A program made the translations under genes and the position numbers. From IMG/VR virus record IMGVR_UViG_2663763270_000002: a stretch of 64,000 bases of DNA, one strand, 5' to 3'. Source of the DNA: an uncultured virus (IMG/VR IMGVR_UViG_2663763270_000002) (lineage: Duplodnaviria > Heunggongvirae > Uroviricota > Caudoviricetes). The notes under the pieces are model-generated. The model was not told the origin of the DNA. It saw nothing but the letters and a program-made list of their open reading frames with translations, and did not search any database. Below are positions 897 through 59,642 of this stretch, piece after piece; the first letter of the stretch is position 1; each line of letters starts with the position of its first letter.

Positions 897-1588
897 GCCA
901 CCTCTGAAGGCTCTTGGATATTCGGGTCGTACAGGACGCCGAAGACCAGAATTTGCAGGACTACCGGAGCGACAGAACCGGTAACCGAAGTGACGTTTAC
1001 GTATAGTCGCTCGCGGTTGGACACTTCGTGTCCACCGAGAATCTGCCAGTTCGCGCGGGTTTGATTCGCAGTCAGCGTGTACGTCTCGACCACGGAATTA
1101 ACGGTTCCGGCAGCATTCCACTTCTTCAGCTCGAACGTCATACCGTTCGGCTGCGACAGCAAGGCGACGTGAATATCTGTCACTTTCCGCTTCAGTCCAG
1201 CGGGTACGTTCTGACAGAGGCCGATCAGTAGCTCATTCTCGCCCAGCACTACGGCGGCAGATGCCGCAACGAATTCAGCTTCCCAGTATGAGGCTGCGTT
1301 GTAGGCGGTGGCGGCGGTAGCTTCAGCCGCAGCGGCAGCGTTGACCGCTGCCTGAGCTTCGGTAACGGCCTGTCCGGCGGCCCCGGAAGCCGCCTGTGCG
1401 ATGGAATACGTATTGTCAATACGTTCCCGGACATTGGTCCGGTGCTCGTCTTGGGCCTTGATCGCCTTTGTCTTGGCACCGTTGGTGACGATGCCCAGTA
1501 CGGCATCCTCTTCGATCCCTTGGCCGTACCGGCCACTGTCCCCCAATTGCCACGCGCCATCGGGCTTAGGGCCTACGGGGTAACTCAC
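893..1588 (-). CDS. Minor tail protein
   Basis: N-terminus (PDG..LG..ED..GAK..KAQ..H) resembles 14462..15319; Ala-rich coil followed by a beta domain. Confidence 0.65.
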   Translation of the reverse strand: MSYPVGPKPDGAWQLGDSGRYGQGIEEDAVLGIVTNGAKTKAIKAQDEHRTNVRERIDNTYSIAQAASGAAGQAVTEAQAAVNAAAAAEATAATAYNAASYWEAEFVAASAAVVLGENELLIGLCQNVPAGLKRKVTDIHVALLSQPNGMTFELKKWNAAGTVNSVVETYTLTANQTRANWQILGGHEVSNRERLYVNVTSVTGSVAPVVLQILVFGVLYDPNIQEPSEVA

Positions 1589-1918
1589 CTAGATCCCCTT
1601 CGGTCGTTCCAACTCTCGTAGACGACCGTGCGTGTCTCGAAGGTGCTCGCGAATACTCGCCATGTCCTTGCGGTACTCGTCTCGGAAGTCTCGATGCTCA
1701 TCCCGGAAATCCCGGAACTCATCTCGAATCGCGTCCAGGTCGTCCCGAAGATTTGTGTCGTGCGTATTCGCTACCTGCTCGTGAACTTCGGTGATTGTCT
1801 GCTTCTGCTCTTCCTGGGAGGCCCGGAGGCCGCGCGTCTGAAGCCATTGCGATACGACGTAGGCAACGATCATCAGCGCGGCCAGCCAGCCAGGAGCGCC
1901 AGCGGGAATGTCGATCAA
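1589..1918 (-). CDS. Lysis-cassette membrane protein (DUF2746-like)
   Basis: N-terminal TM helix, QVANTHDTNLRDDLD motif, coiled coil. Confidence 0.7.
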   Translation of the reverse strand: MIDIPAGAPGWLAALMIVAYVVSQWLQTRGLRASQEEQKQTITEVHEQVANTHDTNLRDDLDAIRDEFRDFRDEHRDFRDEYRKDMASIREHLRDTHGRLRELERPKGI

Positions 1919-1921
1919 ACG

Positions 1922-2188
1922 TCACTCCCGAATTTGGAAAGCGCCGACCGTAGCGCCCGGACCATCCTCCGCCGGGGAGGCGGCAGGGGCGTTGTCGGCA
2001 CTATCCGACCGGTTCACGTTGAAAGCGGCCAGCATGGCAATCAGAGTGCCGATAGCAGGTCCGACCGCGTTCATGATGGTGTCGGACTGGTCGGCGGTAA
2101 TGACGCCCAGGAGCATAAGCACACCACACGCAACACCAGCGACGCTGTAGATCACCAGGCGGATAGCCGAATTCTTCTCGTACATCAC
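1922..2188 (-). CDS. Holin
   Basis: 88 aa, two TM helices, directly after the endolysin. Confidence 0.75.
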   Translation of the reverse strand: MMYEKNSAIRLVIYSVAGVACGVLMLLGVITADQSDTIMNAVGPAIGTLIAMLAAFNVNRSDSADNAPAASPAEDGPGATVGAFQIRE

Positions 2189-46037: not shown

Positions 46038-46910
46038 TCACGCGGCCTGACTGGCCGGTGGGGTCATGATTACTTCGTATTCGACGGGCGTCAAACGCCC
46101 GAGGCCGGTCTGCCGGCGCCGCCGGTGGTAGGTGCGTTCGATCCAGGTGACGATCGCGATGCGCAACTCCTCACGCGTGGACCAGGATCGGCGGTCCAGG
46201 ACGTTGCGCTGCAAGAGCGCGAAGAAGCTTTCCATCGCGGCGTTGTCACCGGCCGCGCCTACCCTGCCCATCGACCCTGTCATGCCGTGACGAGTCAAGG
46301 CGTGCACGAACTTCCGGCTTCGAAATTGCGACCCGCGGTCGCTGTGAAGCACACATCCGGCAACGTCGCCGCGCCGGGCGACAGCATTGTTGAGTGCCCG
46401 GACCGCAAGCACCGACTTCATGCGGGAGTCGATGGAATACCCGACGATCCGGTTGGAGAACACGTCCTTCACTGCGCAGATGTAGAGCTTGCCCTCACCG
46501 GTCCAATGTTCGGAAATGTCCGATAGCCACAGCTGGTTCGGGGCATCGGCGGTGAAGTTGCGGCGGACCAGGTCCTCGTGCACCGGCGGGCCCGGTCTGC
46601 CCTTCCCGCCGCGCTTCTTGCCGAACACGCTCCACCAACCTCGTGCCGAGCAGATCCGCCACGCGGTGCGATCGGCCATCGGCTCGCCCGCGGCCCGAGC
46701 CTCGTCAGCGAGAAACCGGTACCCGAACTCCGGATCGTCACGGTGAGCATCGAACAGCGCGTTCGCTCGATACGCCTCGTCGAGTTCGGCAGTCGTAACC
46801 GGTTCGGCGAGCCACCGGTAGTAGGGCTGGCGGGCCAGCCCCAACACCCGGCACGTCACCGCGACGGGAATCCCGTCGTCGGCCAGCTCACGGACGAGCG
46901 GGTAGGTCAT
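46038..46910 (-). CDS. IS3 OrfB DDE transposase
   Basis: WLSDISE, HSDRGSQF, DNAAMESFF. Confidence 0.95.
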   Translation of the reverse strand: MTYPLVRELADDGIPVAVTCRVLGLARQPYYRWLAEPVTTAELDEAYRANALFDAHRDDPEFGYRFLADEARAAGEPMADRTAWRICSARGWWSVFGKKRGGKGRPGPPVHEDLVRRNFTADAPNQLWLSDISEHWTGEGKLYICAVKDVFSNRIVGYSIDSRMKSVLAVRALNNAVARRGDVAGCVLHSDRGSQFRSRKFVHALTRHGMTGSMGRVGAAGDNAAMESFFALLQRNVLDRRSWSTREELRIAIVTWIERTYHRRRRQTGLGRLTPVEYEVIMTPPASQAA

Positions 46911-47200
46911 TTTCCCGGCAGATTCGCCTGCGCAAAATAGGCGGCGGCTCGTTTGAGAACCTCGTTCTCCTGCTCCAGCAGCCGAATCCGGCGCCTGGCT
47001 TCCCGAAGCTCCGCCGCCTCGCTTGAGGTCATGCCCGGTTTCACACCATCGTCGACATCGGTTTGCCGCATCCATTTCGACAGCGTCATCGGGTGGATCC
47101 CGAAATCCGCGGCGACCTGCTCCAACGTCACCCCGTCATCACGGTTGCGAGCCACCCGGACGACATCGTCACGGAACTCGCGGGGATAAGGCTTGGGCAC
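46907..47200 (-). CDS. IS3 OrfA
   Basis: PKPYPREFRDDVV HTH; LEQENEVLKRAAAYF zipper. Confidence 0.93.
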   Translation of the reverse strand: MPKPYPREFRDDVVRVARNRDDGVTLEQVAADFGIHPMTLSKWMRQTDVDDGVKPGMTSSEAAELREARRRIRLLEQENEVLKRAAAYFAQANLPGK

Positions 47201-47827
47201 AGCGACATCCTTCCAGCCCACCCGAAGGCAAGCCACATCAGGTGTCACCTACCCCTGCAGCAGCCCCCACATGTGGTTGAGCACTGTGCGAAGAACGGCA
47301 TTGCATTGTCGCTTAGGGATGAACGGAACGTGAAATTCCCGATCATCGAATCGGAGAAGAAGATCCAGGACCAGACTTGGTTTTCGGCGCCAGTCTTGGA
47401 TGTGCTGGAGAAACACCAGCCGGGTCTTCTCCCCGACCCGCTCGACCATCCTTTGGCCCAGTTGAACAGGCTTGTGAACCACGACAAGCACCGGCTGATG
47501 CTCGTCACGAACAGTGCCTTCATCGAAAGCGACGTAGTCTACTCGGACGAGTTCGAGTTCGTGCGGGATGACAGTCCCCCCGACGGCGAGCTGCGACCTG
47601 GATACGAACTCGCGGCATGGGTGTTCCGCGCTACCGTCCCACAGCTGACGAGACACCCTCATCATCTGATCAAGATTGGGCAGATCGGCTACCACATCTC
47701 GATCGACTTGCCCGACAGCAACCGCTTCGAGCACCTGCTGCCGACGATGAACGCTATCCGCGATCGGGTGGGGCAGGTGCTTGACGACCTCGAAGCCGCC
47801 GGGGTCACTTAGCTTGCACCAGTCCGG

Positions 47828-48049
47828 TCACGAGCGTCGTTTGCCGCCGCCGGGCCAGCGCCCGAACACGATCCGGTAGTAGCGGGCTGCGAGCCCGGAC
47901 GCTTCACGCAGCGACATGTGTTGCAGCAGCAGTGTTTGCAACGTGATGAACGGATGCTCGGAGGTCGCCCACTTGGCTTTGCCTTCACCGGTCGTCCAGT
48001 ATTCGTTCAGCTCACGGGACGCACCGGTCTTGCCGTCAGGATCAGCCAT
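47828..48049 (-). CDS. Small hypothetical phage protein
   Basis: RBS AGGAGG; YWTTGEGKAKW..G.WPG. Confidence 0.65.
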   Translation of the reverse strand: MADPDGKTGASRELNEYWTTGEGKAKWATSEHPFITLQTLLLQHMSLREASGLAARYYRIVFGRWPGGGKRRS

Positions 48050-48170
48050 CACGCCTCCTGACATCGGGTCGGCAAGAGAACACCGGCCGCCCCCACCCGA
48101 AAGACGGGCGCGGTCGACCGGCAAGAAGGGGATAGCCTGGCTGCCGTTGCCGGGAGGGCAGGCTATTTCG

Positions 48171-48244
48171 TGGCGGTGTCGCGATTTGAACGCGAGACTC
48201 CAGCTTATGAGACTGGCGAGTTAACCGACCTTCTCCACACCGCT
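48171..48244 (-). tRNA. tRNA-Met(CAT), initiator-like body, no encoded CCA
   Basis: AGCGGTG/CACCGCC acceptor, CCAGT-CTCATAA-GCTGG anticodon arm, TCGCG-TTCAAAT-CGCGA T arm. Confidence 0.9.
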
Positions 48245-48752
48245 ATGCGGCAGGCGCCGAAGGGATCACGCCGTCCGGCCACCTGCCCTGTAGTCGCCCC
48301 GCGAACGGGACTGGTGAGCCGTTACCTCACTGCTCGGCATCCCGTGGTGCCGCAACGCTTACGCGGTGGCGGATGGCTGCCGTAGCCACACCATCCGCCA
48401 GTGAGGACCATCAGCCGAAAACGGAAAGCCCTCTACCGTTACCGCTCATCGCAGCTGACCGGCCTCGTCGTCCGGCGAGTAATCCGATCAGCCACTACCC
48501 GACCTACCGCAATAGACCAGGCCAAGTTAAGGGGTGGGGAGAGTTCCTAGCTCTCCGTCCGGGGCATGGACCGTAAGGCTATGTAATTCCCGGTGCTGCG
48601 ACTTGCCCGCTGAGGCATCGGTTTCCGCCCGCTAAGGCTTCCCCTCAGGCACTCGCCCGTCAGGTTCCCGACAGTCGCACACATTCGCGGCCCGATCACG
48701 CAGTAGCCGCTCACTCTGTCACCACCAGCGCGGCTAGCTAGGCCACGCTTTG
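48245..48752 (-). ncRNA. Candidate ~500-nt structured non-coding RNA
   Basis: No credible ORF; many nested helices; bracketed by two tRNA folds. Confidence 0.55.
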
Positions 48753-48841
48753 CTCCCCGCCCGCGATTCGAACGCGGACCCACCCTGGCCGCACCATCCG
48801 AGGCGCAAGCGCCGGCACTCTTTCCATTGAGCTAGCGGGGA
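48753..48841 (-). ncRNA. tRNA-like element with tRNA-Asn-like body and aberrant extended anticodon arm
   Basis: TCCCCGC/GCGGGGA+G, GCTC-AATGGAAA-GAGT, CCGCG-TTCGAAT-CGCGG; no 7-nt anticodon loop. Confidence 0.8.
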
Positions 48842-48976
48842 AACCGATATGAAGTTGTGGATTCCTTGGGCCGATCCACTGAAGGAGTGTGGTGGCAGCA
48901 CCACGGGCGACCAAGGCAAGTGGAGATGCCAAAACTGGGGCAATCTGCTTTTGGGTACAACTCACCCGCAAATCAG

Positions 48977-49033
48977 ATGGTAGGGCATGATCGGCGGCGG
49001 AAGCCCAATCGTTTGTAACAATTATGTTACAAA
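48977..49033 (-). promoter_or_regulatory. Putative promoter (-10 TACCAT) with AT-rich palindrome
   Basis: TTTGTAACA-ATTA-TGTTACAAA at 49012-49033. Confidence 0.6.
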
Positions 49034-49069
49034 TTTCGTTGAAGGATTGACTCCACCCTGCACCAGCAA

Positions 49070-50458
49070 CTAGACGCCGATCAATTGCCCCGCCAAATAC
49101 TCCTCCACCCGCGCCAACGACACCCGCTCCTGCGACATCGAATCCCGCTCACGCACCGTCACCGCCTGATCCTCCAACGAATCAAAATCCACCGTGATGC
49201 AGAACGGGGTGCCGATCTCGTCCTGGCGGCGGTAGCGGCGGCCGATCGCACCCGCGTCGTCGAACTCCACGTTCCAGTGCTTGCGCAGCTGCGCGGCCAG
49301 ATCCTTGGCCTTCGGGGTGAGGTCGGCGTTGCGCGAGAGCGGCAGCACGGCGGCCTTGACCGGGGCGAGCCTGCGGTCAAGGCGCAGCACCGTGCGCACG
49401 TCCACTCCGCCCTTGGCGTTGGGCGCCTCGTCCTCGGCGTAGGCGTCGACGAGGAACGCCATCAGCGAGCGGGTCAGACCGGCCGCCGGCTCGATGACGT
49501 AGGGGATGTAGCGCTCGTTGTTGGCCTGGTCGAAGTAGCTCAGCTCGGTGCCCGAGTGCTCGGAGTGCGTCTTGAGGTCGTAGTCGGTGCGGTTGGCGAC
49601 GCCCTCCAGCTCACCCCACTCGCTGCCCTGGAAGCGGAAGCGGTACTCGATGTCGACGGTGCGCGTCGAGTAGTGCGACAGCTTCTCCTTCGGGTGCTCG
49701 TAGAGGCGCAGGTTCTCCGGGTCGATACCCAGGTCGGTGTACCAGGCCAGCCGGGTGTCGATCCAGTACTGGTGCCACTGCTCGTCCTCGCCCGGCTTGA
49801 CGAAGAACTCCATCTCCATCTGCTCGAACTCGCGGGTGCGGAAGATGAAGTTGCCCGGGGTGATCTCGTTGCGGAAGCTCTTGCCGATCTGGGCGATGCC
49901 GAACGGCGGCTTCTTGCGCGCGGTGGTCTCGACGTTCTTGTAGTTGATGAAGATGCCCTGGGCGGTCTCCGGGCGCAGGTAGTGCAGGCCCTCCTCGTCG
50001 TCGACCGGGCCCAGGAAGGTCTTGAGCAGGCCGGAGAAGTTGCGCGGCTCGGTCCACCGGCCGGGCTCGCCGGTCTCGGGGTCGCGGATGTCGGCCAGGC
50101 CGTTGGCCGGCGGGTGGCCGTGCTTCTCCTCGTACGCCTCCAGCAGATGGTCGGCGCGGTAGCGCTTGTGCGTGATCAGCGACTCGACCAGCGGGTCGGT
50201 GAAGGTGGCGACGTGGCCGGAGGCCTCCCAGACCTGACGCGGCAGGATCACCGAGGAGTCCAGGCCGACGACGTCCTCGCGGCTGGTCACCATCGACCGC
50301 CACCACTGCCGCTTGATGTTCTCCTTCAGCTCCACCCCGAGCGGCCCGTAGTCCCAGGCCGACTTGGTGCCTCCGTAGATCTCACCGCACGGGTACACCA
50401 GCCCCCGGCGCTTGGCGAGGTTGGCAACGGTGTCCACCTTGGATTTGGTCTTTGACAT
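49070..50458 (-). CDS. glyS: Glycine--tRNA ligase (homodimeric class IIa)
   Basis: [55 protein letters not shown]. Confidence 0.98.
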
Positions 50459-50551: not shown

Positions 50552-51235
50552 TCAGGCGGCGTTCTGTTCGGCAGGTGTGACGGACCTCAAGTACTCGTTG
50601 ATGTCTGTCCAGGTCCACTGCTCATGATGGATGGATTTGTCGGCGAGGATGAAGGTGCCGTTCTTCTCTCGCATGGACAGGGCCGCCCAGTTGATGCCCC
50701 TTGCGTGCAGCATGTCGTGGATCGCCGTCCGGTTCTTCCCGTGCAGCTCACGGTGTGAGAAGTGCGCGCGCGCCAGCATCTGCAACGAGTTCCGCGCCCA
50801 GTCCTGCTGGCGCCACACGAACACGTTCGGCGCGTCCGGCTGTGGCACCACGAACGCCCGCGAATCGAACACCGCCGTCGGCTTCTCTCGGAACAGCCGG
50901 TTGAAGTGCATCGTCATCGTCGACGCCGAGATCGACACCAGCTTGTTCACCTCGTACCCGAACCAGCCGGCCGTGTCGTGCGTATCGAAATCGGTCAGCA
51001 GGAACGTCGCCTCATCCGACTGGACATAGCCGAGCTTGAATCCCTGCATCTCCCGTGCAGTTTCCACCGCGGCGTCGACCATCGTCTGCATGAGGACGGG
51101 GTCGAACGGCCGCCGCATGCCGCGCGTGAACGTGTGGAACGCCTTGCCGTCGACCCGCAGGAACACGCACGAGTTCGGCGTGAGCCGGTAGTTCGAGGCG
51201 GCCTCGTAGGCTTTGATCCGGTCGCCGAGTTTCAT
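50552..51235 (-). CDS. Thg1-like tRNA(His) guanylyltransferase / 3'-5' polymerase
   Basis: RVDGKAFHTFT, YVQSDE, KLVS..AS, FDSR, WRQQD..RNS, KNG. Confidence 0.93.
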   Translation of the reverse strand: MKLGDRIKAYEAASNYRLTPNSCVFLRVDGKAFHTFTRGMRRPFDPVLMQTMVDAAVETAREMQGFKLGYVQSDEATFLLTDFDTHDTAGWFGYEVNKLVSISASTMTMHFNRLFREKPTAVFDSRAFVVPQPDAPNVFVWRQQDWARNSLQMLARAHFSHRELHGKNRTAIHDMLHARGINWAALSMREKNGTFILADKSIHHEQWTWTDINEYLRSVTPAEQNAA

Positions 51236-51492
51236 GCCGCCTCCTGGTGTTCGACGGGTACGGCTCGAAACACGGACCGGTTCGGCGCCGACCGTGCAGG
51301 TTCGAGAAGGCGGTACGTCCATGTCCCGTTCGCGCAGCGGAATGTGACCGGGTTGCCGTCCCTGGACACGAACTCGCTGGGTAATTCGGCAAGGAACTCC
51401 TGGGTGATCGAGATGCGTGGCAGCGGGTTGACGCACTCGATTGCGCTGGCGCCGTCGTCCCGCAGGCGGGCCCGGAAGTACATCACGGTCAC
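51232..51492 (-). CDS. Hypothetical protein
   Basis: Start/stop overlaps on both sides. Confidence 0.55.
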   Translation of the reverse strand: MTVMYFRARLRDDGASAIECVNPLPRISITQEFLAELPSEFVSRDGNPVTFRCANGTWTYRLLEPARSAPNRSVFRAVPVEHQEAA

Positions 51493-52307
51493 GCTGCCGC
51501 CTCGAACAATCCGATCTGCTGGACAAGCTCGCCCTTTGCTCCCGCGGGCGCGACGGCGAGGTTGCAGGCTGTGAAGTCGACGGTCACGATCTCCGTAGCT
51601 GGCGATACCCCATGCCAGTCCTCCTGGTGGGAGCTGGTGTCGATGCCGCAGTTCGGCTCCAACACGATCCCCGTTTCCCGTACGAACTTGTCGTACTCGC
51701 GGCCGCCGGTCCCGTCCTGGTAAAACGGTTTGCCGCTGTAGTCGAACGGCGCCGACATTTGCGGAATGATGAACACCCCATAGTCGGCCACCTGCGCGGC
51801 GACCGCGATCACGTGGTACTCGAACTTTCGGGACGTGCAGCCGGGCGCGTTCTTGGATCGTTTGATCGCCCCGAACGGCGGGTTTCCGATCGCCACATCG
51901 AACCACCCCAGCCCCATGTCGGGCACGTCGAGGATGTCGCCGCAAATCCAGGTCGCTTCGGGCAGGATCTTCCGGCCGACACGTACGTAGTCGGGATTGC
52001 GCTCCACGCACACGAACTCGCGCTCCGGGTCGCCGGCCCAGCGGTTACGGCACCCGTGCGAGAGACGTCCGATCCCCGCGCCGAGGTCGATCAACCGACC
52101 GAACCGGCCGGTCAACTCGACAGAGAAGTCTTGCGCCAACCCTGCCGGGGTGAAAAACGCCCCGTGCGTGGAGTTCGCGGCAGTCGACATCTCCTGGAAG
52201 TTGTCGAGCACAAACGACTTCTCGTCCTCGGTGAGATCACGGTCGAGATCGACGAGAGCAAGCGCTTCAGCGTGCAGCTTCTCCTGCTGCTTCGTCATCT
52301 TCCCCAC
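51489..52307 (-). CDS. SAM-dependent amino-methyltransferase (likely DNA adenine)
   Basis: GAFFTP, DLGAGIG, GNPPFG. Confidence 0.85.
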   Translation of the reverse strand: MGKMTKQQEKLHAEALALVDLDRDLTEDEKSFVLDNFQEMSTAANSTHGAFFTPAGLAQDFSVELTGRFGRLIDLGAGIGRLSHGCRNRWAGDPEREFVCVERNPDYVRVGRKILPEATWICGDILDVPDMGLGWFDVAIGNPPFGAIKRSKNAPGCTSRKFEYHVIAVAAQVADYGVFIIPQMSAPFDYSGKPFYQDGTGGREYDKFVRETGIVLEPNCGIDTSSHQEDWHGVSPATEIVTVDFTACNLAVAPAGAKGELVQQIGLFEAAA

Positions 52308-54904: not shown

Positions 54905-55672
54905 TCACTGCATGTCGATGATGGCGGTGTTGTCGGCGATGGGTGCGTGGTCTCCGTCGAGGATGTGCACCATGGTCGAGTAGCGTTCACCGTTCAATCT
55001 GGTGTCGAGGCGGCAGTGGTAGTGGCCAGCGAACAGGCGCTTCGGTTGCACGACGTCGACGACCCCGCGGAGGACGCGACGGTTGAGTTCGGCTGCGTAG
55101 ATCTGGGCCTCAGGGAACCTGAATGGGTTGCCTTCGATGCACGGGATTCGGATGCCGGCGGGTACGTCGTGGCAGATCATGATGTCGGCGGGTCCGCCTT
55201 CACAGGCGCGGAGGGCGTCGGCTGTGGTGATGGTTTCGCCTGGCCACCATTCGATGTGTGGGCGACGCCAGGGCCGGTCAACGCTGTGCGCGCCGCCCAT
55301 CGCGAGTAAGCGGACTCCGTTCCAGGTCCATCGGTATCCGCGGGGCAGGTACCAGATGCGGGGCCGGATGGGGATGGCGGTGTGGCCGTGGTCCCTGACG
55401 AGTTCGGCGAGCAGGGTGTGGTTGTCGTGGTTGCCGTCGACCCAGCCGAGGACGAGGCCGGTCTCTTCGAGTGCGTCTTGGACGTGATCGAGGAAGTCTG
55501 GTGACCCGTCGAAGTTCTCGCGCATGTCGTAGGCGAAGTCGCCGACATGCAGGATCATCTGTGCACCCTGCTGGGCTGCGTAGGTGATGGTTTTGCGTGC
55601 GTAGGCGGCGTTCGCATGCCAGTCACCACAAACTGCGATCCGGGACGGCTGCAACACCTCGAAGGCAGTCAT
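54905..55672 (-). CDS. Metallophosphoesterase
   Basis: GDWH, GDF, GNHD, HD, GHYH. Confidence 0.9.
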   Translation of the reverse strand: MTAFEVLQPSRIAVCGDWHANAAYARKTITYAAQQGAQMILHVGDFAYDMRENFDGSPDFLDHVQDALEETGLVLGWVDGNHDNHTLLAELVRDHGHTAIPIRPRIWYLPRGYRWTWNGVRLLAMGGAHSVDRPWRRPHIEWWPGETITTADALRACEGGPADIMICHDVPAGIRIPCIEGNPFRFPEAQIYAAELNRRVLRGVVDVVQPKRLFAGHYHCRLDTRLNGERYSTMVHILDGDHAPIADNTAIIDMQ

Positions 55673-58798: not shown

Positions 58799-59620
58799 TC
58801 AACCGGCAATTTCACACACAGCCGCAGAGTTCCGTCCGACGATCCGGCCGCCACGTTCCCACCACGCCAGATATGTGTCGATCAGCCACCGGTTGATGCG
58901 CGCCAAGTCCGGCTCAGGCGGCAGGTCCGCATGCAGCGACAGGTGGTTCAACTGCGCCAGCAGGTCCGCAGCCCGTTCCAACGCTTCCTCTTTCGTGTGC
59001 AGCCCGTGCCGCAGCTCCGTCAGCCACGCCCGCTCAGGTTCCGGCATCGGCAACGTGATCCGCCCCGTGGTCAGTAGCTCCACACCCTGCACACCCAACC
59101 TGACCATGTGATAGGCGAACTTTGCGTCGAATCCGTACACGTCCACCAGCTCGGGCCGGTTCGTGTGTTTCTTCGACTTCACGCCCAGCATCTGGTCTCG
59201 CTGCGACATGAGGTAGCCGGCGAACCGGTCCGCGACCTGCCGGGACAGGAACCGGTCGGGGTGGGCTTGAAGATCGCGGCCGACGTGGCTGGTAACCACG
59301 ATTTCCTGTTCGGGGATGAACATCAGCAGCAACACGGTGGGGTTTCCTTGCGCGGCCAGTCGCGCCCATTTCCGCAGCGAGTACACGGTCAGGTCGAGGT
59401 CACCGGCACCCGAACGCACGCCTTCCGGTTGGGTTCGGAAAATGTACTGCTCGAACCGGTCTAGCCCGATCACGTATTCGGGAGGCTCGATGCACACGCC
59501 CATTTCGTCGCGGTCGTCGGCGCCGGTGGTGACGCCGTGGAGCCCGGACCCGACCTGACCGCGCAGGACCGTATTCTGGTTCGCGATCCGCTGAAATTCG
59601 GCGCTGCCGTGAACGCTCAT
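58799..59620 (-). CDS. DNA pol-beta superfamily nucleotidyltransferase (RlaP-like)
   Basis: GSGLHG..DDRD.MG, GNP..L, RPELV..GFD.K..H..RL. Confidence 0.88.
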   Translation of the reverse strand: MSVHGSAEFQRIANQNTVLRGQVGSGLHGVTTGADDRDEMGVCIEPPEYVIGLDRFEQYIFRTQPEGVRSGAGDLDLTVYSLRKWARLAAQGNPTVLLLMFIPEQEIVVTSHVGRDLQAHPDRFLSRQVADRFAGYLMSQRDQMLGVKSKKHTNRPELVDVYGFDAKFAYHMVRLGVQGVELLTTGRITLPMPEPERAWLTELRHGLHTKEEALERAADLLAQLNHLSLHADLPPEPDLARINRWLIDTYLAWWERGGRIVGRNSAAVCEIAG

Positions 59621-59642
59621 CTGATTTTGTCCTCCCACGTAA

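Follow-up and report, generated by a model that had tools for sequence, protein, structure and literature searches.

A probable uncatalogued family of pseudoknotted RNAs beside the tRNA genes of actinobacterial phages

The IMG/VR record IMGVR_UViG_2663763270_000002, from an uncultured virus of the class Caudoviricetes, was analysed over a stretch of 64,000 nucleotides (nt), hereafter called the window. On its minus strand, ARAGORN identifies a degenerate tRNA-like fold and a tRNA-Met gene, and a gap of 508 nt (48245–48752) lies between them; the question raised by this locus is what the gap encodes. The original prediction, made from the letters alone, had proposed a single structured RNA of ~500 nt exactly flanked by the two tRNA folds. 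The ARAGORN coordinates agree with these boundaries, and the conserved unit was found to be about 226 nt long, the remaining ~280 nt consisting of three separate modules. Judging from sequence comparison, this unit represents an uncatalogued family of actinobacterial-phage RNAs.

Four open reading frames (ORFs) of 78, 71, 67, and 49 amino acids (aa) overlap the gap, none of which is conserved, and the 78-aa ORF overlaps the 5′ part containing the conserved unit (the core; Table 1). Stop codons are present in every frame of the core in most of 25 homologues, and 71 of the 77 internal gaps in a MAFFT alignment of the 25 core sequences are not multiples of three (1 or 2 nt long). No frame is conserved among the homologues, and the core is non-coding, as had been expected from the lack of a credible ORF. 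No Rfam 15 family matched the 508-nt gap at the gathering score or at E ≤ 10, and none matched the RNA in 15 homologous loci at E ≤ 0.1, in keeping with the earlier view that an undescribed structured RNA of actinophages resides here. A full-text literature search found no description of this RNA, and a motif search of the viral csRNA catalogue (PMC10690425; >10,000 csRNAs with motifs of 29–151 nt) was blank in supplements that are partly searchable, where sub-pieces may be listed.

Compensatory changes were present in the first alignment of homologues, and RNAalifold predicted 53 pairs from 15 sequences, 14 of them with double changes. A covariance model (R1; 226 positions and 56 pairs) was built after the register of helix P1 had been corrected. 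In the covariance-model alignment of 25 sequences, standard pairs occupy 97.5% of the 1283 cells, a percentage that is inflated by the fitting of this alignment to the model, and both sides have changed in 36 of the 56 pairs; none of 500 shuffles reached any of the observed measures. When the 3′ partners were slid by 1–3 columns, pairing fell to 35–46% and the number of pairs with double changes to 7–11. The G-U pairs in the core alignment are specific to the minus strand. Covariation, which the original prediction had regarded as decisive, is therefore strong, and this comparative evidence clearly indicates that the core is a real 12-helix pseudoknotted RNA, beyond what chance would produce.

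Read from 5′ to 3′, the core starts with CAAAGC and P1, followed by the 5′ strand of P2, the invariant UGACAGAGUG leading into P3/P4, AAUGUG, and P5. Within P5 lies P6, and within P6 lie P7/P8 and P9; the GGAAAC joiner, P10, P11, P12, and the 3′ strand of P2 complete the molecule. The multi-way junction enclosed by P2 is formed of P3/P4, the branched P5–P10 domain, P11, and P12. Two single-stranded stretches, GGUGACAGAGUG and AAUGUG, are invariant. UAGC-type tetraloops closed by wobble pairs are found on P9 and P10, and UAGC also occurs within the loop of P1. The window possesses all 12 helices, the P4/P11 pseudoknot, and both invariant stretches.

The pseudoknot was detected only by folding the P4 loop against the P11 loop, and pairing is maintained at its five positions in 20 of 21 sequences. 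Different pair types are used at single positions (GC/AU; AU/GC/CG; UG/CG/UA/AU/GU), and the variants include GAUCG/CGGUC, GGUCG/CGGCC, GAAUCG/CGAUUC, and GGACACG/CGUGUUCC. A column-wise scan for further long-range helices yielded only a 1-base-pair (bp) extension of P5. Complementarity between the P12 loop and the UAGC loops, considered by eye, was rejected as inconsistent across sequences.

Table 1. Positions of the RNA, its helices and modules, and selected neighbouring genes in the window
Feature	Position	Strand	Details
Core RNA	48523–48752	−	230 nt, 5′ part of the gap; R1 score 252.3 bits
P1	48748–48742/48734–48728	−	5′ hairpin
P2	48726–48722/48537–48533	−	5-bp closing helix, GGUGG/CCACC
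P3	48719–48715/48683–48679	−	
P4	48710–48705/48692–48687	−	
P5	48678–48675/48601–48598	−	
P6	48672–48668/48621–48617	−	
P7	48664–48662/48643–48641	−	
P8	48659–48655/48650–48646	−	
P9	48638–48635/48630–48627	−	
P10	48615–48613/48608–48606	−	
P11	48593–48589/48563–48559	−	
P12	48556–48551/48543–48538	−	
Pseudoknot	48697–48693/48573–48569	−	3′ part of P4 loop (GAUCG) with P11 loop (CGGUC); own scripts, alignment A3
Module B	48449–48522	−	Hairpin, conserved GGAAGUG, long bulged hairpin ending GCGA
Module X	48354–48448	−	Closed by GCGGU/ACCGC; holds long GGCGGAUGG...CCAUCCGCC hairpin
Module C	48245–48355	−	Four hairpins joined by conserved GCAG, CCAGUCC, and GCGACUACA
tRNA-Met(CAT)	48170–48244	−	ARAGORN; Rfam tRNA model 52 bits
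tRNA-like handle	48753–48841	−	ARAGORN 'tRNA-Ala(tgc)', 90 nt, 48752–48841; abuts the core
Class II aminoacyl-tRNA synthetase (462 aa) and Thg1-like neighbour	49070–50458, 50552–51526	−	Synthetase Pfam domains HGTP_anticodon and tRNA-synt_2b
RlaP (RNA-repair-pathway nucleotidyltransferase family) and metallophosphatase	58799–59638, 54905–55672	−	Same prophage arm

The remainder of the gap is occupied by modules B, X, and C. Because other phages have these modules in different combinations or in the absence of the core, the 500-nt RNA is, on comparative grounds, a composite; the gap is a chain of four recurrent structured modules rather than a single 500-nt fold. Of 16 Nocardia-type loci, 7 have module B behind the core; this module shows compensatory changes in 12 of 25 predicted pairs (seven sequences). 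Module X is shared with locus L010, and copies with 74–77% identity are found at other places in the tRNA arrays of L060 and L086, two distant contigs; 3 of its 24 pairs are compensatory (four sequences), by which its structure is weakly supported. In module C, 9 of 26 pairs are compensatory (nine sequences), and the module ends 0–3 nt before the next tRNA; it is present without the core in L022 and L024, where R1 is blank at E ≤ 1 and no core lies within 1.5 kb. Other tails found behind the core are a GC-rich terminator-like hairpin (module A; many Nocardia loci) and a small ORF (L041 and L051). Module A is missing from the window.

Ten pairings had been drawn by hand in the original prediction, and half of them coincide with covarying helices, namely 48597–603/48673–79 (P5), 48538–43/48551–56 (P12), 48454–62/48484–92 (the module B stem), GCGGATGG/CCATCCGC (a module X helix), and CCG-TTCG-CGG (H3 of module C). 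The other five are without comparative support and mostly clash. The strands of 48704–10/48730–36 belong to P4 and P1, the 5′ strand of GTCGGG/CCTGAC is that of P6, and CTGAGG/CCTTAG overlaps P8, P7, and P9. The pairing 48325–32/48399–406 clashes with H2 of module C, and some phages have modules X and C at separate sites; the CGC-GTAA-GCG hairpin is not retained in L060 or L086.

By blastn, the core was found in 14 of 267 Nocardia genomes, including the window's own, and the 13 others match its first ~234 nt at 79–88% identity. All model searches used R1, which is based solely on Nocardia-type sequences and gives distant members low scores (21–26 bits). Applied to 151 genomes of the bacterial family, R1 gave two matches, one of them outside Nocardia (G343, 26.4 bits). 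In a loose-pattern scan of IMG/VR and metagenome contigs filtered with R1, 9 of the 100 scored loci matched, all from IMG/VR (21.5–208 bits), and none of the 73 metagenome loci did; L162–L167 and the unlisted remainder of 118 stretches were left out of this scoring. When 50,697 phage records were searched by blastn, L082 was the only query that matched named phages, the window locus and the cores of L083 and L060 yielding tRNA-Met only, or nothing. Two of the nine IMG/VR matches, L082 and L084, are the Mycobacterium phages DyoEdafos and Bromden, which score 21–23 bits with R1 (E about 1e-5 to 1e-6). The stretch of L082 is also present in Chaser (97.3% identity over 88% of the query), and its 5′ half in Aegeus and Baudelaire. 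In DyoEdafos, the element lies within an unannotated 347-nt gap that extends from tRNA-Pro to tRNA-Trp.

The mycobacteriophage sequences share P1, the invariant 5′ words, P4, and P12, and differ in the middle domain; DyoEdafos and Bromden, both Cluster L mycobacteriophages, are thus probable members of the family. Bromden and Baudelaire are placed in Cluster L, whose rightward tRNA clusters are thought to be lytically expressed (PMC10865867). The family appears to reach across actinophages, because the large terminase subunits (TerL) of two IMG/VR carriers are nearest to those of a Gordonia phage isolated on Rhodococcus (69% identity) and of Streptomyces phages (52%). In the one member from outside Nocardia among the genomes of the bacterial family, L054 (1722–1979, plus strand), the core lies ~170 nt after a tRNA-Met, and the next feature is not a tRNA but a small Cys-rich ORF that has its own ribosome-binding site.

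The location between tRNA folds is conserved and fits the excision by tRNA processing envisaged in the original prediction. In 20 of the 25 loci, the first base of the model is the last base of an ARAGORN tRNA or tRNA-like call; a gap of 4 nt is present in DyoEdafos and Bromden. No call was obtained in L040 and L060, and the alignment of L040 shows tRNA-like sequence at this point. The next called gene downstream is a same-strand tRNA in 20 of the 25 loci. In L062 and L083, this tRNA overlaps the end of the model by 5–6 nt, and the ~220-nt core therefore fills the inter-tRNA spacer alone. In one Nocardia prophage, the P10 loop of the core contains a nested tRNA-Met gene (L042 1618–1693, the same as L021 1670–1745); if it were excised, the L042 core would be left as two base-paired pieces.

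The upstream tRNA-like fold, hereafter called the handle, retains the acceptor, D, and T arms, and in our reading of the sequence a short tetraloop hairpin and an extra arm stand in place of the anticodon arm. The Rfam tRNA model (RF00005; threshold 29 bits) gave no match to 48752–48841 even at E ≤ 10, so the earlier term 'mimic' is apt: the handle is a tRNA-shaped structure and not a decoding tRNA. Most of the handles of the other loci are likewise irregular. According to our reading of the ARAGORN labels, 15 of the 20 abutting tRNAs or tRNA-like folds are non-canonical. Five have no readable anticodon, and nine are labelled Leu, Ser, or Tyr yet are 70–76 nt long (that of the window is 90 nt), whereas bacterial tRNAs for these amino acids carry a long variable arm (the class II rule). 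The Rfam tRNA model assigns 38–47 bits or nothing to the abutting folds and mostly 50–70 bits to the other tRNAs of the arrays. RNase P and RNase Z read the acceptor/T minihelix and the elbow, and the irregular handles fit selection for processing signals only.

Processing by tRNA punctuation draws its main support from this retention of only those parts that are read by RNase P and RNase Z, as would be expected of a processing handle. On this positional evidence, it is rather probable that the RNA is co-transcribed with the array and released by tRNA 3′-end processing together with RNase P. In the proposed course of events, a non-coding RNA encoded by the minus strand of the gap would be transcribed together with the prophage tRNA genes, and 3′ trimming of the upstream handle would free its 5′ end at about 48752. 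The 3′ end of the composite RNA, at 48245, would arise when RNase P cuts at its predicted site at the 5′ end of tRNA-Met. The pseudoknot between the P4 and P11 loops would lock the whole fold, to which modules B, X, and C are appended in this phage. Much more tentatively, the compact RNA thus released may act in trans during lytic growth, in the niche that is also used by the phage RNAs GOLLD and ROOL.

The surroundings of the RNA were compared among related loci. The window is a prophage in which Pfam domains of large terminase, portal, capsid, tape-measure, lysin, and LysB-like cutinase proteins were found. Upstream of the RNA and on the same strand are genes for a sliding clamp, RlaP, a metallophosphatase, a DUF5131 protein, a MazG-like protein, a Thg1-like protein, and a 462-aa class II aminoacyl-tRNA synthetase. 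Thg1-like proteins are of the tRNA 5′-end repair type, and the presence of RlaP, the metallophosphatase, and the Thg1-like protein together suggests an RNA or tRNA repair theme. We take the synthetase to be GlyRS-like, as judged by its C-terminal motif. Its G+C content at third codon positions is 0.95, compared with about 0.78 for the phage genes, and it looks like a recently captured host gene, because a second copy on contig C1 shares 98% identity with it. The end of the synthetase gene is also found just upstream of the handle in the related Nocardia prophages L012 and L021. Clustering of the neighbours of 14 loci showed that they are syntenic, with genes for MazG-like, DUF5131, and phosphatase proteins upstream and LysB, TerS, and TerL downstream. 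In the window, a pair of IS3-type transposase genes (an HTH_Tnp_1 ORF and an rve integrase-core ORF; 46038–47248, minus strand) lies between the RNA/tRNA locus and the lysis genes.

A promoter and terminator scan of 47700–49300 yielded no promoter and one plus-strand terminator-like site, with no excess over shuffles. A spacer of 229 nt separates the synthetase gene from the RNA locus and contains a perfect A+T-rich palindrome (49012–49033; minus strand, TTTGTAACA TAAT TGTTACAAA). The consensus promoter scan is blank at this palindrome, which is a candidate for an operator or promoter of the tRNA/RNA transcript. A partial match to the DUF3800-IV RNA motif (RF02963), which is likewise a prophage-associated orphan motif, was found at 48862–48919 on the minus strand, 20 nt upstream of the handle (48.5 bits versus a gathering score of 60.7). 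It spans model positions 17–75 of 91, is missing from the 15 homologous loci, and lies outside the conserved element; no DUF3800 protein was detected among the ORFs scanned with Pfam.

Taken together, the reading that we somewhat favour is that of an uncatalogued phage-family RNA that is co-transcribed with the tRNAs, has its ends cut by tRNA-processing enzymes, and acts in trans. A role directed at the tRNA or translation system, or at a tRNA-directed host defence, is put forward more tentatively and by analogy; the likeliest activity would be to bind or shield a tRNA or translation component and thereby support the proposed anti-defence function of the array. Phage tRNA arrays have been discussed in this anti-defence context (PMC12803027).

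Several observations weigh against the favoured reading. The trans function is proposed purely from context, and no conserved gene for a partner protein was found beside the RNA when the 14 loci were clustered, the shared neighbours being backbone phage genes. In L041, L051, and L054 (3 of 25 loci), the core is followed by a small ORF instead of a tRNA, and L054 is without an abutting tRNA, so tRNA bracketing is not obligatory. The inflated pairing percentage noted above belongs here, as does the finding that neither the gap nor the core folds more stably than shuffled sequences. The folding energy of the 508 nt is −229.4 kcal/mol, compared with −225.3 ± 7.7 kcal/mol for shuffles (z = −0.53; 28 of 100 shuffles as good), and for the 230-nt core z is +0.07 (106 of 200 shuffles as good). 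The original prediction had proposed this z-score as a check, which would wrongly have refuted the RNA; most helices of the core are recovered in its single-sequence minimum free energy (MFE) fold. The case serves as a methodological warning that, in G+C-rich DNA, the MFE z-score may be blind to a structure that is overwhelmingly supported by covariation.

Sequencing-run data add further points on this side. None of the runs recorded as RNA contains the stretch, and no transcript, end, or abundance was observed. Parts of 48149–48638 are covered by contigs from four runs, three of which are guessed to be RNA, the fourth being of unknown kind. Contigs of the three presumed RNA runs, which come from a related organism, span 48329–48565 and 48240–48638 and carry adaptor-like loose ends on the low-coordinate side: three contigs end at 48329, 48329, and 48240 in 20–23 foreign letters, and two of these probably represent one data set filed twice. 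We presume the foreign letters to be a template-switching oligo; the kind and strand of the sequenced material are unproven, and no conclusion on expression is drawn. If the letters do reflect template switching, the runs would be cDNA and the ends could mark the 5′ ends of plus-strand (antisense) molecules or of fragments, which does not fit a minus-strand RNA; a library artefact is another possible source. The closeness of the end at 48240 to the predicted RNase P site (4–5 nt) may be a coincidence. The contig of unknown kind (48149–48539) bridges the junction between module C and tRNA-Met.

The alternative that survives best, although it is an unlikely one, is that the element is a cis-acting part of the array transcript, i.e. 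a spacer, a processing or stability platform, or a put-like antitermination signal, with no role once excised. In this reading it would assist RNA polymerase and RNases on the array and promote read-through into the late (lysis and terminase) genes. The RNA is always co-oriented with the tRNAs and mostly lies near the 5′ part of the array; modules A, B, X, and C fill the spacers interchangeably, and module C abuts the 5′ end of the next tRNA. In 11 of the 14 loci, TerS and TerL follow on the same strand at a distance of 1.2–6.6 kb, and the terminator-like hairpin of module A stands behind the core in many Nocardia loci, all of which would suit a cis element. However, 12 helices, a pseudoknot, and invariant unpaired stretches that are maintained from Nocardia prophages to mycobacteriophages far exceed known processing or antitermination signals, put RNAs being about 70 nt long. 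Moreover, most phage tRNA arrays, e.g. that of Bxz1, are without the core, and in L054 the core stands without an array.

A more elaborate version of the trans-acting role, which we consider doubtful, would make the core an RNA machine (a ribozyme, or a tRNA- or ribosome-binding RNA) that acts on tRNAs or on host tRNA-targeting defences during infection and is excised by the tRNA-processing machinery via a dedicated, degenerate tRNA handle, possibly self-assembling through its repeated UAGC and palindromic loops in the manner of ROOL and GOLLD.

It is improbable that the core is a cis-regulatory leader, riboswitch-like or of another kind, by which a ligand or tRNA is sensed to control what follows. 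A junction and pseudoknot with invariant unpaired bases do resemble an aptamer, many loci have a terminator-like hairpin behind the core, and in L041, L051, and L054 the next feature is an ORF with its own ribosome-binding site. Against this, the gene that follows is a same-strand tRNA in 20 of the 25 loci, the core is not placed in the 5′ untranslated region of any one gene class, and the downstream ORFs, where present, are small and unrelated. No alternative pairing is evident between the 3′ strand of P2 and a downstream hairpin, and the window is without module A.

Very improbable, too, is a highly divergent GOLLD, ROOL, or other large RNA such as transfer-messenger RNA (tmRNA) or RNase P RNA. 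The niche would be the same: GOLLD and ROOL are described as phage RNAs 'often near tRNA islands', with tRNAs sometimes located in the GOLLD linker (PMC12286853), and ROOL is a phage or prophage RNA often near tRNAs and with pseudoknots (PMC5737381, PMC12286853). The layout of a conserved domain followed by a variable linker is similar, and the nested tRNA of L042 recalls those in GOLLD linkers. Nevertheless, none of these RNAs matched over the locus at E ≤ 10. For GOLLD (RF02032; threshold 150 bits), there was no match at the gathering score, at E ≤ 10 over 47900–49200, or at E ≤ 1 genome-wide. For ROOL (RF03087; threshold 99.1 bits), there was none at the gathering score or at E ≤ 10 at the locus; the genome-wide search at E ≤ 1 was also blank, which is a weak negative as the control genomes gave no match either. 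RNase P RNA (bacterial A and B and other types) was absent from the Rfam matches over the locus at E ≤ 10, and its P4 consensus words were not seen in the sequence. ARAGORN and Rfam (RF00023) detected no tmRNA, and there is neither a tRNA-like domain formed by the ends nor a tag reading frame; the same tools detect the tmRNA of Bxz1. The core is also short, with 226 nt versus 416 (GOLLD) and 574 (ROOL) model positions. Conversely, R1 is blank on the Bxz1 array with its tmRNA (best score 8.5 bits, nothing significant) and, with filters off, scores 2.6 bits on L210, which holds a GOLLD-like match. This match lies in another genus of the family (1501–1953, minus strand; 144.5 versus 150 bits), outside tRNA arrays, and contains a same-strand ARAGORN 'tRNA-SeC'.

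That the locus is junk (decayed tRNA genes, a mosaic, or an antisense or coding feature whose helices are by-products of a high G+C content) can hardly be maintained: the shuffle-like z-scores, the modular mosaic make-up, the possible plus-strand cDNA ends, and the 78-aa ORF over the core are outweighed by the 36 compensatory pairs among 56 and the minus-strand-specific G-U pairs, which largely refute it, and by invariant unpaired motifs over deep divergence, the lack of a conserved frame, and a fold that is not a cloverleaf.

Among known systems, the tmRNA of Cluster C mycobacteriophages (Bxz1) is comparable in being a structured non-tRNA RNA gene inside an actinophage tRNA array. In MALAT1-mascRNA and in mitochondrial tRNA punctuation, an adjoining tRNA or tRNA-like fold lets RNase P and RNase Z set transcript ends. 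The degenerate handle, with acceptor, T, and D arms and no working anticodon arm, resembles mascRNA and suggests, by analogy, a bacterial-phage counterpart of this type of end definition; those systems are eukaryotic or organellar and experimentally proven, whereas processing is here deduced only from position.

The structured RNA of Mycobacterium tRNA arrays is reportedly GOLLD, to go by the title of a paper by Morgado in 2020. A ~430-nt 'structured RNA' is given for about 81% of these arrays in another report (PMC5966550). Like GOLLD, the RNA described here is an orphan, elaborate phage or prophage non-coding RNA that lies in or beside tRNA islands, is probably co-transcribed with the tRNAs, and sometimes has a tRNA nested in it. 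It differs in that the core is about half the size of the conserved 3′ domain of GOLLD (226 versus 416 positions) and the conserved part is 5′ rather than 3′, and the two do not match in either direction. With ROOL, it shares the phage or prophage origin, the proximity to tRNAs, and the presence of pseudoknots, and differs in sequence (no match) and size (about 574 positions in ROOL). ROOL is described for other host groups, namely Firmicutes and rumen samples. The core represents a third, unrelated, and smaller fold in the niche that GOLLD and ROOL occupy beside phage tRNA genes, and because its probable Cluster L members grow on M. smegmatis mc2 155, the role of such RNAs would be accessible to existing phage genetics.

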